From a virus (Duplodnaviria; Heunggongvirae; Uroviricota; Caudoviricetes): a stretch of 22,057 bases of DNA. The stretch is from IMG/VR virus record IMGVR_UViG_2740892443_000002; one strand, written 5' to 3'. The position numbers and the translations under genes are program-made. Shown here in pieces: positions 1 through 9,758 of the stretch. Below the pieces are notes generated by a model, which was not told the DNA's origin, searched no databases, and saw only the letters and a program-made list of their open reading frames with translations. The stretch's first letter is position 1; every line of letters begins with the position of its first letter.

Positions 1-1032
1 TCAAAAACTTGCTATTGATGTTGGTAGTGTTGCCAGCGGATTAAACCGTAATGCAGTTTCTAGGTGATCCGGTGCTAGATGTGCGTAACGCATAGTCATT
101 TTTATGTCGTGATGTCCGAGGATTTTTTGCAAAGCAAGGATATTTCCACCCGACATCATAAAATGCGCCGCAAACGTATGGCGCAGAACGTGTGTCAGTT
201 GACCGCGAGGGAGCACGATAGACGTTTTTTCCATCACGGATAAAAATTGAAAATAGCAGTCTGTGAAGAAATTGAACCCATCGAGCGCCATGATCTCTTC
301 GTAAAGCTCTTTACTGATAGGGATGCTTCTGTTTTTCTTCCCCTTCGTTCTGACAAAGGTAATTCGGTATTTGGTCACCTGTGAGCGGGTAAGGTTTATT
401 GCTTCTCGCCAGCGTGCGCCTGTGCTTAAGCATATCTTGACTACCAGTGCCAGAATTGGGTCCTGACGTTTGCAATCATCCAGCAGTTCAACAATCTGCT
501 CATGGGTAAGCCATGCCATCTCTTTTTCTGCGATGGTGAATTTTCGCATGTTCTCCAGTGGGTTTGGATACGACCATTCGCCCAGGCGGGATAGTTCGCT
601 AAAAACACTACTTAGATAGCTTTGCTCCAGGTTAATGGTGACCGGGCTGGCCCCTTTCTTCCATTTCTCGCTGAAGTAGATCTCACCTGTCAGTCGTTTA
701 TCTCGATAATGGGCAAACATTTTAGATGTGAGATCGGTTGCAAGGGGATTGCCCAGAGCGTCAACCATCAGCAGCAATTTGTCATAGACATGCTGCCCAG
801 CAGTCAGAGATTTACCATGTAGTTTGAACCATAGCTCAACCACGTCTTTCAGGGTTCGACGATCTACTGATTCGCCCAGCCAGGGCTTTGCTTCGGTTTC
901 TTCCATCGTATGACGCTCAAAAGCCAGTGCTTCGCCTTTGGTGGCGAATTGTTTACGCACACGACGCCCACTACGTCCGGCGGGGTAACATTCGCAAAGC
1001 CATTTTCCTGTGGTGAGTTTTCGTACTGCCAT
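1..1032 (-). CDS. int: Tyrosine integrase, P2/186 type (343 aa from ATG at 1030-1032; stop at 1-3)
   Basis: ORF translation starting MAVRKLTTGKW... parallels remembered P2 Int N-terminus (MAIKKLDDGRYEVD...RKF..K.EA.AFE) and has the C-terminal catalytic region (LRHTFAAHF...MRYAHL) typical of tyrosine recombinases. The ORF-track start upstream is probably a non-ATG artefact. Confidence 0.9.
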   Translation of the reverse strand: MAVRKLTTGKWLCECYPAGRSGRRVRKQFATKGEALAFERHTMEETEAKPWLGESVDRRTLKDVVELWFKLHGKSLTAGQHVYDKLLLMVDALGNPLATDLTSKMFAHYRDKRLTGEIYFSEKWKKGASPVTINLEQSYLSSVFSELSRLGEWSYPNPLENMRKFTIAEKEMAWLTHEQIVELLDDCKRQDPILALVVKICLSTGARWREAINLTRSQVTKYRITFVRTKGKKNRSIPISKELYEEIMALDGFNFFTDCYFQFLSVMEKTSIVLPRGQLTHVLRHTFAAHFMMSGGNILALQKILGHHDIKMTMRYAHLAPDHLETALRFNPLATLPTSIASF

Positions 1033-1218
1033 AAAAAATGCCCTCCAATAGAGAGCATTTTTACTGTATGTATAACCAGTGTCAATGTATGAAATCTTGC
1101 GACCATACATCTCACTGAAGCCATAATGAAGTTGGCTATTTTTTGCTATGTGAGTATGTGACTTTTGCGGTTAGCCTGCGGCTCATTGTTATATTAGGCG
1201 CAGATATAAAAGCAAAAA

Positions 1219-1425: not shown

Positions 1426-1995
1426 TTACCTAACGTACTTAATTGTTAAACTTATAATTTTTCCAATTATTTCAACATCTTCTATCTTGCACTCGAAGGA
1501 TCTGTTTCCACCTTCAACGAAGATTCTTCCACCGGGTAAACGAGTAATGTCGCGGATTGTTATTTCGCCATCAATACTTATTACCCATTTACCATCACGT
1601 ATATCATCAAATTCTTTATCACAAATAAATTCAGAATTGTTATCTGTGATGACAAAAGGTTTTTTAAACGTAGAGGGTAGAAATCCCTTATCAAAAATAT
1701 AAAAACCGTCTTCACGCAAGGCACCATCAGATAATACATATTTAGCAACTTCCATCGTATTTGTATTACCTGAAGTTTGCTTTGAACCATGTCCAGTTGT
1801 GAGCCAATTAAGCGAGGTGCCCGTTTCAAGGGCGCACTGGATTACCCATTCTGCTGGGAATGAGTCACGCATGTAGCGTGTAGCGAGTGTACTTTTAGAG
1901 ATTCCTAAATGATCGCACAACGCCTGTCGAGTTTTGAATCCATAAGCTTCTACCATGCGCTCTATAGCGCCTCGTCCGCCTTTCTCCAAATTCAT
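1426..1995 (-). CDS. cI: 186-type CI immunity repressor (189 aa from ATG at 1993-1995; a GTG two codons upstream is an alternative start)
   Basis: Translation (…ERMVEAYGFKTRQALCDHLGISKSTLATRYMRDSFPAEWVIQCALETGTSLNWLTTGHG…) closely parallels the remembered phage 186 CI sequence (…DRICEAYGFSQKIQLANHFDIASSSLSNRYTRGAISYDFAAHCALETGANLQWLLTGEG…) and is the same length class (~190 aa). GGAG precedes the ATG on the minus strand. Confidence 0.85.
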   Translation of the reverse strand: MNLEKGGRGAIERMVEAYGFKTRQALCDHLGISKSTLATRYMRDSFPAEWVIQCALETGTSLNWLTTGHGSKQTSGNTNTMEVAKYVLSDGALREDGFYIFDKGFLPSTFKKPFVITDNNSEFICDKEFDDIRDGKWVISIDGEITIRDITRLPGGRIFVEGGNRSFECKIEDVEIIGKIISLTIKYVR

Positions 1996-2019
1996 GGTCA
2001 CTCCAAGTGAACTTTTATC

Positions 2020-3925: not shown

Positions 3926-4779
3926 GCACCATCCTGAAATGGGCGGGAAATAAAACCGCCATTATGTCCGAACTGAAAAAACACCTTCCTGCTGGCCCGC
4001 GACTGGTTGAACCTTTCGCGGGTTCCTGTGCTGTGATGATGGAGACGGATTACCCCAGCTATCTGGTTGCGGATATTAATCCTGATTTAATCAACCTCTA
4101 TAAAAAGGTTGCCGCTGATTGTGAATCGTTTATATCTCGCGCCAGAGTTTTATTTGAGATCGCAAACAGGGAGGTGGCTTATTACAACATAAGGCAGGAG
4201 TTTAATTACTCCACTGAAATTACTGATTTCATGAAAGCGGTATATTTCCTGTATCTCAATCGTCACGGTTACCGTGGTTTATGTCGCTATAACAAGAGCG
4301 GGCATTTCAACATTCCCTACGGTAATTATAAAAATCCGTATTTCCCTGAAAAAGAAATTCGCGCATTTGCAGAAAAGGCCCAGCGAGCAACGTTTATCTG
4401 CGCCAGCTTTGATGAAACGCTGGCGATGTTGAAGGCGGGGGATGTGGTGTATTGCGATCCGCCGTATGACGGTACGTTTTCCGGCTATCACACTGACGGC
4501 TTCACTGAAGATGACCAGTATCACCTGGCATCTGTTCTTGAACATCGGTCATCAGAAGGACATCCGGTCATTGTTTCTAACAGTGACACATCCCTGATCC
4601 GTTCGCTGTATCGCAATTTTACTCACCACTACATCAAGGCAAAACGCAGCATCGGTGTGGCAGCTGGCGAGGGTAAATCAGCAACAGAAATCATTGCTGT
4701 TTCCGGGCCGCGCTGCTGGGTGGGATTTGATTATTCGCGTGGCGTGGATAGTTCTGCCGTGTACGGAGTACGTGCATGA
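3922..4779 (+). CDS. dam: DNA N6-adenine methyltransferase, Dam family (285 aa from ATG at 3922)
   Basis: N-terminal LKWAGNK and FAGSCAV (AdoMet-binding motif I region) and catalytic DPPY ([10 protein letters not shown]) motifs read in the translation. ATGA overlap with both upstream and downstream genes. Confidence 0.85.
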
Positions 4780-7190
4780 GTCATGCCGATATGAACAACT
4801 GCTGCGGCTTTAACGAGGCTGCCGCAGCATTCTCATGGAACAGCCCGAAAAAGGCCATTAACCCTTATCTGGACCCGGCGGAAGTTGCGCCGGTTTCTAC
4901 GCTTTCAAACCTGATCACTCTGTACGCTGCCGATAACGAGCAGGAACAGTTGCGCCGCGAGACACTGAGTGATCAGGTCTGGGAGCGTTATTTCTTTAAT
5001 GAATCACGTGATCCTGTCCAGCGCGAAATGGAGCAGGATAAGCTCATTAGCCGGGCAAAGCTGGCGCATGAGCAGCAGCGTTTTAATTCAGACATGGTCA
5101 TTCTGGCGGACGTCAACGCCAAGCCTTCCCATATCAGCAAGCCGCTGATGCAACGTATTGAATACTTCAGCAGCCTGGGCAGGCCAAAGGCTTATTCCCG
5201 CTATTTACGTGAGACGATTAAGCCATGTCTGGAACGACTGGAGCATGTACGCGACAGTCAGCTATCTGCATCTTTTCGCTTTATGGCAAGCCATGAAGGG
5301 CTGGACGGCCTGCTGATCCTGCCTGAAATGAGTCAGGATCAGGTGAAACGCCTGTCCACCCTGGTAGCTGCGCATATGAGTATGTGCCTTGATGCAGCTT
5401 GTGGTGATTTGTATGCCACCGATGACGTTAAGCCAGAAGAAATCCGCAAGACATGGGAAAAGGTGGCAGCGGAAACCCTGCGTCTGGATGTCATCCCACC
5501 TGCGTTTGAGCAACTCCGTCGGAAAAGAAACCGCCGTAAACCCGTGCCCTATGAACTCATTCCGGGTTCGCTGGCGCGTATGTTGTGCGCCGACTGGTGG
5601 TATCGGAAATTATGGAAGATGCGTTGCGAATGGCGGGAAGAGCAGTTGCGCGCTGTTTGCCTGGTCAGCAAAAAAGCATCTCCTTATGTCAGCTATGAAG
5701 CCGTGATGCATAAACGTGAGCAGCGCCGTAAGTCGCTGGAGTTTTTCCGTTCTCATGAACTGGTGAACGAAGACGGCGACACGCTGGACATGGAGGATGT
5801 GGTAAACGCCAGCAGCAGCAACCCTGCGCATCGCCGCAATGAGATGATGGCCTGTGTTAAAGGTCTGGAGCTTATCGCGGAAATGCGCGGTGACTGCGCC
5901 GTTTTCTACACTATCACCTGTCCGTCGCGTTTCCATTCCACGCTAAATAACGGCAGACCAAACCCGACCTGGACAAACGCGACGGTAAGACAAAGCAGCG
6001 ATTATCTGGTCGGCATGTTTGCTGCATTTCGTAAGGCGATGCACAAAGCCGGGTTGCGCTGGTATGGCGTGCGGGTGGCTGAGCCGCATCATGATGGCAC
6101 AGTTCACTGGCACCTGTTGTGTTTCATGCGCAAAAAAGACCGCCGTGCCATCACTGCATTACTGCGTAAGTTTGCCATCCGTGAAGACCGCGAGGAGCTG
6201 GGCAATAACACTGGGCCGCGCTTTAAGTCTGAGTTGATTAACCCGCGCAAAGGAACGCCGACAAGCTACATCGCGAAATATATCAGTAAGAACATTGACG
6301 GTCGTGGTCTGGCTGGCGAGATCAGCAAGGAAACGGGTAAATCTCTGCGTGATAACGCTGAATACGTGAATGCCTGGGCGTCTCTGCATCGTGTTCAGCA
6401 ATTCCGCTTCTTTGGTATTCCGGGGCGTCAGGCTTACCGTGAACTTCGCTTGCTGGCTGGTCAGGCGGCAAGGCAACAGGGTGACAAAAAAGCAGGTGCG
6501 CCGGTACTGGATAACCCGCGTCTTGATGCCATTCTGGCTGCTGCTGATGCTGGTTGTTTTGCCACCTACATCATGAAGCAGGGCGGCGTACTGGTTCCCC
6601 GTAAATATCACCTCATCAGAACCGCTTATGAAATCAACGAAGAGCCGACCGCCTATGGCGATCACGGCATTCGTATTTATGGCATCTGGTCACCCATTGC
6701 AGAGGGCAAGATCTGCACTCATGCAGTGAAGTGGAAAATGGTTCGTAAAGCCGTTGACGTTCAGGAGGCGGCAGCCGACCAGGGCGCTTGCGCCCCTTGG
6801 ACTCGTGGCAATAACTGTCCCCTTGCTGAAAATTTGAACCAACAGGAGAAAGATAAATCAGCAGATGGGGATACCAGAACTGATATTACCTGCATGGATG
6901 ACAAGGAATTGCACGATTACCTGCACAATATGAGCAAAAAAGAGCGCCGGGAACTGGCAGCAAGATTACGCCTGGTTAAACCGAAACGGCGTAAAGACTA
7001 CAAACAGCGAATTACAGAGCATCAGCGTCAGCAGCTCGTCTATGAACTGAAGTCCAGAGGATTTGATGGCAGCGAGAAAGAGGTCGATTTGCTCCTTCGC
7101 GGTGGCAGTATTCCGTCAGGAGCAGGCCTGCGTATCTTCTATCGGAACCAGCGTTTGCAGGAAGATGATAAGTGGCGGAACCTGTATTAA
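4776..7190 (+). CDS. A: Rolling-circle replication initiator, P2 gpA family (804 aa)
   Basis: Large protein at the position of P2/186 gene A, with a paired-tyrosine motif YIAKYISK (nt 6265-6288; Y-x3-Y) as in P2 gpA / phiX174 gpA-type nicking endonucleases. Confidence 0.85.
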
Positions 7191-7282
7191 TTACGCGGGT
7201 TAACAATTCGTGCTCTTAATAATACCAGGCATATCAGGCTGATGAACGTAAAAAAACGTTTTACATCAGTAAGATTATTATA

Positions 7283-7302
7283 TACTGTAAATATAAACAG
7301 TG
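7283..7302. promoter_or_regulatory. LexA (SOS) box: TACTGTAAATATAAACAGTG (CTGT-N8-ACAG)
   Basis: Exact CTGT-N8-ACAG with AT-rich spacer, read at 7285-7300; overlaps a possible promoter (-35 TTTACA 7260-7265, 17-bp spacer, -10 TACTGT 7283-7288) about 45 bp upstream of the ORF at 7344. Confidence 0.6.
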
Positions 7303-7343
7303 TTTGTGCATACAGTATTGCTTGTGGTGTCATAGGAGGAAAG

Positions 7344-7532
7344 ATGCAGGACTATTTTTTGGAGTCTTTGAAGCTCCAGCGCATTGATTTTTTTCTTAAG
7401 CTTGTAGCGGCTAGTGAGTGTAGTGATGAAGAGAAGGGGCTGGCTCTGCAGTGGGTTTCTGAATTGACTGATGAACTCATGGCAAAAATCAGAAGCCACG
7501 AATACAACCGCTCAATGGATGTCATCAGCTGA
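7344..7532 (+). CDS. Small protein (62 aa) downstream of the LexA box; possibly the 5' part of a split tum-like antirepressor gene
   Basis: ATG at 7344 preceded by AGGAGG. The longer ORF-track start at 7242 would run through the LexA box and is rejected. Relationship to 186 tum is inferred from position and from the adjacent DinI-like gene. Confidence 0.5.
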   Translation: MQDYFLESLKLQRIDFFLKLVAASECSDEEKGLALQWVSELTDELMAKIRSHEYNRSMDVIS

Positions 7533-7542
7533 GGTGACTTTT

Positions 7543-7776
7543 ATGCGCATTGAAATAATGATCGATAAAGAGCAGAAGATTAGCCAGTCTACCCTGGACG
7601 CTCTGGAGTCCGAGCTTTACCGCAACCTGCAACCCATCTATCCCAAGACAGCTATCCGCATCCGTAAAGGGTCGGCAAACGGCGTTGAGCTGAGTGGCTT
7701 AAAGCTTGATGAAGACAAAACGCGGGTGATGGAAATTATGCAGCAGGTTTGGGAAGACGACAGCTGGCTGCACTAA
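7543..7776 (+). CDS. DinI-family protein (77 aa from ATG at 7543)
   Basis: Translation MRIEIMIDKEQKISQSTLDALESELYRNLQPIYPK...DEDKTRVMEIMQQVWEDDSWL aligns along its length with remembered E. coli DinI (MRIEVTIAK...AIDALAGELSRRIQYAFPD...KEDKQRISEILQETWESADDWF). GAGGTG at 7531-7536 precedes the ATG. Confidence 0.85.
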   Translation: MRIEIMIDKEQKISQSTLDALESELYRNLQPIYPKTAIRIRKGSANGVELSGLKLDEDKTRVMEIMQQVWEDDSWLH

Positions 7777-7849
7777 GGAACGTTCCTGATGTAAGAACTT
7801 GATTCTGACGTCAGCAAGGTTGAACAACGAGAGTAGCGAGGCGTTAGCC

Positions 7850-8110
7850 ATGGGTAAAAAAGACAGTAATCACCAGATTATTTATCGGGGCCAGGTGCTG
7901 GAACGGTTTACCCCTGGCGGCTGGGTCTTCTTTCAACGCCCAAAGGAGTGTGGCGGAGGTTTTTGGTTGGGCCGCACCTATGAAGACTGCTTCTGGCTTG
8001 AGCTGGAATTCCCCGTTTCGCTATATGACGGCCTGGAGTTTTTGATGGAAGTCACCAGGGTAGAGCAGAGAAGTGATGAGGTTGACGCGAATTATTCCCT
8101 GTTTGATTAA
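7850..8110 (+). CDS. Hypothetical protein (86 aa from ATG at 7850)
   Basis: GAGG at 7838-7841 about 8 nt before ATG 7850; ORF-track start at 7799 is TTG. No recognisable family. Confidence 0.45.
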   Translation: MGKKDSNHQIIYRGQVLERFTPGGWVFFQRPKECGGGFWLGRTYEDCFWLELEFPVSLYDGLEFLMEVTRVEQRSDEVDANYSLFD

Positions 8111-8158
8111 AAATGTATTAGCTTATAATGGAATACTATTTTTGCAGGTGGGGGCGCA

Positions 8159-8770
8159 ATGGATTTAGTCTTTAAAATTCTGGCTTCGTTGGGTGGGGTG
8201 TCTTTTGTTGCATCTGGCATATTTGTTTGGATCGGGAAAGTTTATTTAGAAAGATATAAGTCGCGGCTAAACAAAGATATTGCTGAATTTCAATCACAAC
8301 TGAGTGCAACTAATGAAAGAATAAAGGCTAAGTTAGACAATTCTGTTTATGTAACGAAAGCGTATTTTGATAAGGAGTTATCAGCATATAGTCTCATTTG
8401 GAATTCGATGTTTGAAACCAGAGAAAGCGTGCTTAAGCTGAGGCCTGCGCTGGATCATTTTGACCCCAACGAACCATTTGAAGAGAGAAAATTTAGAAGG
8501 TTGAAAGTTTTTTTCGATGCATTTAATACTTTTGTTACAAGTGTTGAGTCTAACAAACCGTTCATCTCACCAGAGGTTTATATAATCTTGGACCGTTTCC
8601 GGAAGGAATGCTTTTCAGAGTCAATATCGTTTCAGCATGGCGATCCAGAATTTGACTGGCAAAATTATTGGAAAGAGGCAGAGTTGAATCGTACAACCAT
8701 CATCAAGCTTTTTGATGAGACGTGTGATGCAATTCGAGACAGGATGCACACATTAACTGTGGTTACGTAG
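8159..8770 (+). CDS. Membrane-anchored protein (203 aa): one N-terminal transmembrane helix, coiled-coil-like segment, C-terminal domain of unknown function; cargo gene, candidate defence function
   Basis: Hydrophobic stretch ILASLGGVSFVASGIFVWIG near the N-terminus; AT-rich codon usage unlike the flanking prophage genes; own -10 TATAAT at 8124-8129 and a downstream hairpin terminator at 8862-8889. Confidence 0.7.
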   Translation: MDLVFKILASLGGVSFVASGIFVWIGKVYLERYKSRLNKDIAEFQSQLSATNERIKAKLDNSVYVTKAYFDKELSAYSLIWNSMFETRESVLKLRPALDHFDPNEPFEERKFRRLKVFFDAFNTFVTSVESNKPFISPEVYIILDRFRKECFSESISFQHGDPEFDWQNYWKEAELNRTTIIKLFDETCDAIRDRMHTLTVVT

Positions 8771-8861
8771 TTTTCCAAAAAGTCTCGATGCCCGCTTTGG
8801 CGATTGTGCATGTCTATGCCGCATGAATCCGCATGATCGTTTGAGGATCGTTTTAGCTGAG

Positions 8862-8889
8862 GCCCGCTAGGAATGGCGGGCTTTTGCTT
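8862..8889 (+). terminator. Intrinsic terminator candidate: GCCCGC-TAGGAATG-GCGGGC followed by TTTTGCTT
   Basis: 6-bp GC stem (8862-8867 / 8876-8881), 8-nt loop, T-rich tail 8882-8889; lies about 90 nt downstream of the 8159-8770 gene. Confidence 0.45.
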
Positions 8890-8930
8890 ATGTCATGCAG
8901 ACGCATGAAAACCACTACATAAAGCGGGCA

Positions 8931-8949
8931 GGCGTGGCGGGGATACGAG
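8931..8949 (+). other. cos-like site: GGCGTGGCGGGGATACGAG, resembling the 19-nt cohesive end of P2/186
   Basis: First 13 nt match the remembered 186 cos end GGCGTGGCGGGGA(AAGCAT), and the following GCGCGCT also parallels the remembered P2 left end. Orientation points toward Q as in P2. Remembered sequences are unverified. Confidence 0.45.
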
Positions 8950-9059
8950 CGCGCGCTCATGGTTGAATTAATGAAATTATGGTGTTAAATAGGCTAGCTT
9001 TTTAAGTCGTGAATATTCAATTTTTCAACTCATTTTTTTCATAGGGAGGAGTAATTGAC

Positions 9060-9758
9060 ATGGTTATGTTAGTGGATGACTGTCCACGATGTGGATCACA
9101 AAAAATAGCGTTTGATGTTAATGGGCTGAATTGCACTAGGGTTTACAATGCATTGGGCGGGGGTAAAACATACGAGTACGAGGTCTATTGTGTTTGCCGA
9201 GAGTGTCATAAAACGACAATGTTTCTTTGCAGACCTTTAACGAAAAATAAAACTTTAGATGGCTATAATTGGGAAAGTGGAATATTCGGCTTAAAGGAAG
9301 TTGCAGAGGTTGTTAGGCCTATATCACCGGCAGACTTAGCAGTAGAGGAGCCACCAGAGTTCTTACCTGAGCATATCAATAGTGCATATGAGGAAGGGGC
9401 GAAATGTTTGGCTATAGGTTGTTATAATGCAGCAGCAACCATGTTTAGGCTTTGCCTTGATTATGCCACAAAAGGACTTCTTCCTGATGGGGAGCAAGGG
9501 CCTGCGCAAAAAATAAGGAGAAGCCTAGGGTTAAGAATGGAGTGGTTATTTGATAATCATCTACTGCCTGAAGCTTTAAGGGAACTAGCTGAATGCGTTA
9601 AAGATGACGGAAATGATGGAGCGCATGAAGGTATTTTGGATAAAGCTGCTGCTGAGGATCTTGAAGATTTTACCTATCTTTTTTTAGAACGGCTTTACAC
9701 TGAACCTCAACGCCTTATCGAAGCCAAGACAAGGCGTGAACAAAGAAGAAACAAATAA
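9060..9758 (+). CDS. Zinc-ribbon protein with DUF4145/HEPN-like C-terminal domain (232 aa); cargo gene between cos and portal, candidate defence/abortive-infection effector
   Basis: N-terminal CPRCG...CVCRECH (C4 ribbon); C-terminal helical region ending ...LRELAECVKDDGNDGAHEG... resembles the GN-x-AH core that I recall for DUF4145. GGGAGGAG precedes the ATG; candidate promoter -35 TTGAAT 8963-8968 with TG-extended -10 TAAATA 8986-8991. AT-rich. Stop is 8 bp from the convergent Q stop. Confidence 0.7.
   Translation: MVMLVDDCPRCGSQKIAFDVNGLNCTRVYNALGGGKTYEYEVYCVCRECHKTTMFLCRPLTKNKTLDGYNWESGIFGLKEVAEVVRPISPADLAVEEPPEFLPEHINSAYEEGAKCLAIGCYNAAATMFRLCLDYATKGLLPDGEQGPAQKIRRSLGLRMEWLFDNHLLPEALRELAECVKDDGNDGAHEGILDKAAAEDLEDFTYLFLERLYTEPQRLIEAKTRREQRRNK

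Follow-up and report, generated by a model that had tools for sequence, protein, structure and literature searches.

Described tum loci

In phage 186 the tum gene (NC_001317 29082-29522, 146 aa) lies just after gene A, behind the promoter p95 and a LexA site. Its product looks like an antirepressor-DinI fusion (Lemire et al. 2011, PMC3121763), and both modules are encoded in one ORF under a single LexA box. In that article, 186 Tum is described as binding CI, blocking its binding to the operator and being required for SOS induction, and PSP3 TumA is reported to act likewise. The 186 record annotates three shorter in-frame tum products. One of them starts at an internal GTG (29292) and is labelled 'truncated Tum - modulates SOS induction'. 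Because this internal start gives a truncated Tum, the DinI part is made separately even in 186. The fused, 186-type tum forms a tight clade, with 28 of 38 phage records at least 90% identical.

Two separate genes have been described in other phages of this type. PSP3 (NC_005340) has tumA (60 aa) and tumB behind a LexA box after gene A. Its record annotates the first as 'similar to 5' end 186 tum; UV induction of prophage' and the second as 'similar to dinI and 3' end of 186 tum'. In Fels-2 of Salmonella LT2 the same layout is formed by STM2728 (62 aa) and STM2726.1, a DinI-family gene whose note cites PSP3 TumB. Lemire et al. 2011 (PMC3121763) write that tum is split in two in Fels-2 and PSP3 and that the upstream gene is the antirepressor, a statement that rests there on a 2002 paper for Fels-2 (Bunny et al. 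2002) and on a personal communication for the PSP3 antirepressor. Thus, the two-gene tum arrangement is already known for Fels-2 and PSP3 from the literature and from GenBank. A word search of the literature for the names TumA and TumB returned irrelevant matches only.

A comparable pairing exists in the prophages Gifsy-1, -2 and -3. Their dinI-gfoA/gftA operons are LexA-controlled and combine a small antirepressor with a DinI homologue, as in the locus studied here, and they bring about induction without repressor cleavage (PMC3121763). On the other hand, the gene order is reversed with dinI first, the prophages are lambdoid and the repressor belongs to another family. No sequence relation of the Gifsy antirepressors to TumA was found.

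The cassette and its control region

The whole stretch of DNA analysed here, 22,057 nt long and called the window below, is a P2-family (Peduoviridae) prophage of the 186/Fels-2 type. It encodes an integrase (1-1110, minus strand) and a 186-type CI immunity repressor (1426-2001, minus strand; Pfam Phage_CI_repr E 3e-33, Phage_CI_C E 1e-28, phrog_4 transcriptional repressor), which is the presumed target of TumA. Other genes code for a Cox/Apl-like protein, CII, Fil, a DksA-like zinc-finger protein and a DNA methylase. Directly before the tum cassette stands a replicase of 804 aa that resembles P2 gpA (4776-7190). The cassette thus follows replication gene A immediately, and the prophage carries a CI of the 186 type. 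An earlier reading made from the letters of the DNA (the sequence-only reading) had noticed here a 62-aa ORF at 7344-7532 followed by a DinI-family ORF at 7543-7776, and both are indeed present. We refer to them as tumA and tumB. That reading had left three interpretations side by side, namely a tum gene broken by a frameshift, a sequencing error and a natural two-gene arrangement. Our data support the last of these. We assign a probability of about 0.88 to the region being a natural two-gene SOS operon (tumA/tumB) of a 186/Fels-2-like P2-family prophage.

The first gene, tumA (7344-7532, plus strand), encodes a free-standing protein of 62 aa that aligns with phrog_698 from end to end (E 6e-38) and that would be the CI antirepressor. 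It shows 97% identity to Fels-2 STM2728 and 98% to the counterpart in the isolated phage Cartapus, which has the same pair of tumA and dinI genes. The gene is preceded by the Shine-Dalgarno sequence AGGAGG (7334-7339, plus strand), read from the sequence and conserved in the alignment. Many database entries for TumA are longer, 84-109 aa, such as a 96-aa ORF that begins at ATG 7242 (region 7242-7532). Such long versions have their first codon upstream of the -35 hexamer, so that promoter and LexA boxes fall inside the ORF. Their starts are almost certainly wrong, and the conserved one is the ATG at 7344 behind AGGAGG.

The second gene, tumB (7543-7776, plus strand), encodes a DinI-family protein of 77 aa. 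It matches Pfam PF06183 at profile positions 1-63 of 63 (E 5e-24; 84.8 bits against a cut-off of 24.2), while against NF007893, the NCBIfam equivalog of chromosomal E. coli DinI, it reaches 53.1 bits where the cut-off is 111. By these scores TumB is a phage paralogue and not the host dinI. TumB is 91% identical to PSP3 TumB and 84% to the Fels-2 protein. It is 43% identical to residues 71-145 of 186 Tum, so that the description, in the sequence-only reading, of a 186 Tum of about 146 aa with a DinI-like C-terminal half proved correct. Codon 1 of tumB aligns exactly with the annotated internal GTG start (29292) of the 186 truncated Tum. The gene has a Shine-Dalgarno-like GAGGTG of its own (7531-7536, plus strand; read from the sequence), as had been pointed out before, and this site overlaps the tumA stop codon; relatives have GGGGA or AGGTG at that position. 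Translational coupling through a hairpin at 7521-7538, covering the tumA stop and the tumB ribosome-binding site, was considered. It was dropped because the terminator-like hairpin is not significant (z -0.85) and is not conserved in relatives. An Rfam search of 7150-9100 gave no match.

The control region upstream of tumA contains the -35 hexamer TTTACA (7260-7265, plus strand), which is nearly invariant in 21 aligned loci with a variable spacer adjoining it, and the -10 region TATACTGT (7281-7288, plus strand), which is kept in all aligned loci. Two -10 candidates are contained in the latter, TATACT (7281-7286) with a 15-nt spacer and TACTGT (7283-7288) with a 17-nt spacer. The annotated -10 hexamer of 186 p95 is TACTGT, the same as the second candidate, and the annotated -35 of p95 sits at the same offset from the LexA box as TTTACA does in the window. 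The promoter, equivalent to p95, was assigned from the 186 annotation and from conservation, since a generic promoter scan of the window did not call it. LexA box 1 (TACTGTAAATATAAACAGTG, 7283-7302, plus strand) agrees with the consensus at 17 of 20 positions and overlaps this promoter at sequence level, with the geometry of the annotated 186 p95. Its core CTGTAAATATAAACAG (7285-7300) is the sole CTGT-N8-ACAG in the 22-kb window, and the perfect SOS box over a candidate promoter, as reported in the sequence-only reading, is thus confirmed. In shuffled versions of the window 0.2 such motifs are expected and at least one match occurred in 18 of 100 shuffles; because of this, the box count alone does not exclude chance. 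The box is, however, retained at the same position in relatives. The conserved blocks of the 21 aligned upstream regions come in the order A-tract, TTTACA, TATACTGT-N8-ACAGTG (box 1), TACAGT and AGGAGG, with variable spacers between them. The promoter and the LexA boxes are therefore phylogenetically footprinted, and LexA would be expected to bind at one or both boxes.

The block TACAGT belongs to an imperfect LexA box 2 (CAGTGTTTGTGCATACAGTA, 7298-7317, plus strand; core GTGT-N8-ACAG at 7300-7315), which overlaps box 1. In the window this box agrees with the consensus at 14 of 20 positions by manual count, and its left core is GTGT. Across loci the right half TACAGT is nearly invariant between variable flanks, and the left half is degenerate. 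A second ACAG stands exactly 15 nt past the first in 24 of 36 Fels-2-type tumA loci, including the window, Fels-2 and Cartapus, and the relatives share the consensus CTGT-N8-ACAGTGG-N8-ACAG over both boxes. The second box is absent in 186, PSP3 and a Pantoea/Erwinia subgroup, all with a single box. A similar pattern is known from colicin operators, where a full box is followed by another box that overlaps it and has one core base in common with it. There, two LexA dimers are bound to the overlapping double SOS boxes and repression is very tight (PMC2994835). The likeness to the window lies in the sequence pattern only, and it suggests that a second LexA dimer may be placed on the putative box 2.

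TumA and the CI repressors

The relation of TumA to 186 Tum is remote. BLASTP could not align the 62-aa protein with 186 Tum, and identity to the N-terminal module is about 21%. A profile of 20 TumA sequences aligned residues 1-43 to residues 1-43 of 186 Tum by hhalign (E 5e-4, probability 31%); against PSP3 TumA, which is only 22% identical to the window protein, the profile match was not significant (E 0.076). Matches to common families were also seen. In addition to phrog_698, TumA matches phrog_8554 (1e-8) and phrog_1993 (2e-3), and the first ~60 residues of 186 Tum match phrog_1993 (1e-22), phrog_8554 (1e-11) and phrog_698 (2e-5). Because of these profile matches, the identical genomic position and the promoter, we accept TumA, the first product of the cassette, as a remote homologue of the N-terminal half of 186 Tum. 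The AlphaFold2 model of TumA is a two-helix hairpin (helices 2-23 and 28-61, mean pLDDT 89), for which Foldseek against the PDB returned generic helical hairpins only, all with E > 0.6.

The operon could work in the following manner. In the lysogen, LexA on the box or boxes over the -10 and start region of the promoter (7260-7317) would keep the operon off. After DNA damage, activated RecA would lead to self-cleavage of LexA and the promoter would fire. Both genes would be co-transcribed on one message, each with its own ribosome-binding site. The two-helix TumA would then bind the 186-type CI and free the lytic promoter, giving induction without cleavage of the repressor. TumB could be an accessory protein that modulates RecA filaments and the SOS response, a role modelled on the 'truncated Tum' annotation of the 186 record. 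Since many relatives have no tumB, it would be dispensable.

The interaction between TumA and CI has to be seen against the unequal conservation of the two proteins. Where TumA is 80-98% identical to that of the window, the CI of the prophage shares only 38-61% identity with the window CI. A strictly cognate antirepressor would not be expected to show such a contrast. Within CI, the N-terminal helix-turn-helix domain shows a mean pairwise identity of 67% among the TumA-sharing prophages as against 40% for the C-terminal domain. Compared with the window (L005-L037), identities are 57-95% for the N-terminal and 24-42% for the C-terminal domain, with one exception, L005, where the C-terminal domain is 93% identical. 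A tight covariation of TumA type with the whole length of CI was tested and rejected, only the CI N-domain being moderately conserved. These values would fit a TumA that recognises the DNA-binding domain of CI and acts on several heteroimmune repressors. The rule of one TumA for many CIs is not strict, since a Pantoea stewartii locus (L026) combines this TumA type with a 186-like CI N-domain that is only 35% identical. In another locus (L037) the CI N-domain is 95% and the C-domain 36% identical to the window's, which suggests domain shuffling within CI.

The foremost alternative accepts the LexA control of the 62-aa protein and gives it a function other than antirepression of the resident CI. 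It could be a modulator of SOS or of the host, or an antirepressor against other prophages, with induction of the prophage itself depending on something else. The far stronger conservation of TumA than of CI across heteroimmune prophages speaks for this view, as do the remoteness of its similarity to 186 Tum and the lack of any family in Pfam, NCBIfam or PADLOC or of an informative structural match. Against it, tumA occupies the place of 186 tum and PSP3 tumA behind the same LexA-controlled promoter, and PSP3 tumA is annotated as needed for UV induction. In the literature (PMC3121763) the split tum of Fels-2 is treated as the equivalent of 186 Tum. Moreover, the part of CI that is conserved is the N-domain, which fits one TumA for many CIs. 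We consider a function of this other kind improbable, and antirepression of the resident CI remains the preferred reading.

The same observations allow a further proposal, which we regard as possible but doubtful. The Fels-2-type TumA may be a generalist that acts through the shared CI N-domain and induces several P2-family prophages in trans, and the colicin-like double LexA operator may keep the operon shut until damage is severe. Neither a generalist TumA nor the double LexA operator was found in the literature examined.

Two genes as the usual state of the locus

The idea that tum is a single gene frameshifted here, with a fused Tum of about 144 aa broken in two and a prophage unable to respond to SOS, has some basis in the window itself. 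In 186 the same two modules make up one protein of 146 aa, and in the window both frames are open over 7468-7532. It is correct that the DinI frame is open upstream to 7468, as the sequence-only reading had it; the TGA that closes it occupies 7465-7467, not 7468. The comparison of homologous prophages, however, speaks against any lesion. The two-ORF layout recurs in Fels-2, PSP3, Cartapus and dozens of further phages, so that intact, inducible or isolated phages share it. In addition to the layout, Fels-2 shares with the window the 10-nt spacer, the TGA stop, the promoter with a putative double LexA box and the place after gene A. It differs in TumB (84%), in CI (39% identical) and in the cargo genes downstream. 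PSP3 is more distant, with a LexA box 40 nt from the start codon, an intergenic spacer of 3 nt and a cI ORF of 861 nt (record 23218-24078), much longer than the window's.

A broader sample of 33 prophage loci was drawn from one-genome-per-species bacterial assemblies and covered many Enterobacterales, among them Escherichia, Citrobacter, Klebsiella, Enterobacter, Serratia, Pantoea, Erwinia and Tatumella. An ORF of 62-63 aa, closed by TGA, TAA or TAG, represents the small gene in 30 of these 33 loci. The spacer to dinI, in loci that have it, measures 9, 10, 11 or 12 nt. Since its length varies from locus to locus, there is no fixed frame relation between tumA and dinI, and the variation in stop codon and spacing speaks against a broken gene. 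The reading frames themselves lead to the same result. Over 7468-7532, homologues show 2405, 1856 and 5447 substitutions at frame-0 codon positions 1, 2 and 3, the last 20 codons of TumA being under frame-0 purifying selection, and in this stretch the DinI frame is interrupted by stop codons in 27 of the 34 copies compared. The open double frame in the window is for these reasons accidental. The dN/dS of tumA against the window copy is 0.03-0.14 while synonymous divergence reaches saturation, which means strong purifying selection. None of the marks of a frameshifted pseudogene, that is an indel relative to relatives, relaxed constraint or a conserved alternative frame, was found.

A joined product of frame 0 (to about 7470) and frame 1 has no counterpart among homologues. 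No TumA-DinI fusion occurs among the 120 matches listed of 483 clusters in a search of 5.8 billion proteins, where lengths run from 55 to 109 aa, or among the 87 members found by a profile search of 1.84 billion cluster representatives. An indel relative to 186 tum cannot be placed, because TumA has no similarity to 186 Tum that BLASTP can detect. The cassette is also common in bacterial genomes. Of 5426 complete E. coli genomes, 1126 carry it, the laboratory strain BL21 among them, with up to three copies per genome, and 7 of its 1161 places are on plasmids. Among the E. coli matches listed, the two genes are always annotated 'hypothetical protein' and 'DinI-like family protein', and never as a pseudogene. 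These comparative tests across loci and the protein searches refute a frameshift, for which practically no likelihood is left. A sequencing or assembly error in the record is refuted in the same way and is just as negligible, for the identical arrangement appears in independent records from many laboratories, species and platforms, among them CP019275 with a TumA 100% identical to the window's and E. coli strain 4314 with a cassette 99.6% identical.

With the natural two-gene operon retained, the fused gene of 186 is the special case and the split the normal state of tum in this large prophage group. It is the exception because the fused gene is confined to its tight clade and free-standing TumA-like proteins make up four PHROG families. 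This correction is the main value of the present analysis. It follows that the prophage is expected to be SOS-inducible. About one in five complete E. coli genomes has TumA under the label 'hypothetical protein' or under a spurious name, and gene calls often start too far upstream, so that the ORF takes in the promoter of the gene. The label 'hypothetical protein' follows from the lack of a family in Pfam, NCBIfam and PADLOC. Annotations by the thousand would be mended by a family model and a proper name for TumA. Modest new points are the conserved, putative second LexA box, the optional tumB and the conservation of TumA against a divergent CI, and the second box and the mismatch between TumA and CI are small leads that can be tested.

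The two genes of the cassette have different histories. TumA is close to that of Fels-2 and TumB to that of PSP3, so that the window cassette is essentially a Fels-2 tumA allele joined to a PSP3-like tumB allele. Such a mosaic implies that recombination took place in or close to the short spacer between the genes. About a third of the loci (~12 of 33) have tumA and no dinI. In four of these the sequence 3' of the tumA stop is the sequence that lies 3' of the tumB stop in the window (AGGAACGTT.CTG..GTAAGAA...TTCTGACGTCAGCAAGGTTGAACAACGAG). The precise boundary in the four loci means that dinI was inserted or lost as a cleanly bounded segment of about 245 bp. Judging from these loci, tumB is an optional, movable module. 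Decayed copies were also seen. In Siccibacter, tumA is cut to 20 codons (L035, 7001-7063), and partial dinI matches lie around 7200-7430, in a 60-aa ORF in L019 and without an ORF of at least 50 aa in L022 and L036. In L020 the ORF after tumA was taken by eye for UmuD-like, and this was given up as it has no Pfam match.

Downstream of the tum operon, three ORFs occupy 7850-9758. They encode proteins of 86 aa (phrog_2100), 203 aa (phrog_26391) and 232 aa, the last with a match to DUF4145 (E 4.5e-7) and a weak PADLOC match to PD-T7-4 (E 1e-6). This region takes the place of orf97 in 186, and Fels-2 and other relatives carry other genes there. It is a variable cargo spot, and one of its genes may act against phages. 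A terminator was not detected between tumB and the three ORFs, and therefore the genes at 7850-9758 may be SOS-induced too. Between the operon and the cargo lie about 75 nt of non-coding sequence (7777-7849), for which a stem-loop of -19.3 kcal/mol is predicted that is not significant (z -1.35), has no T-run and gave no Rfam match. The same stretch holds the palindromes GGAACGTTCC (7778-7787) and CTGACGTCAG (7808-7817), and it is kept in relatives with different cargo and also in loci without tumB.
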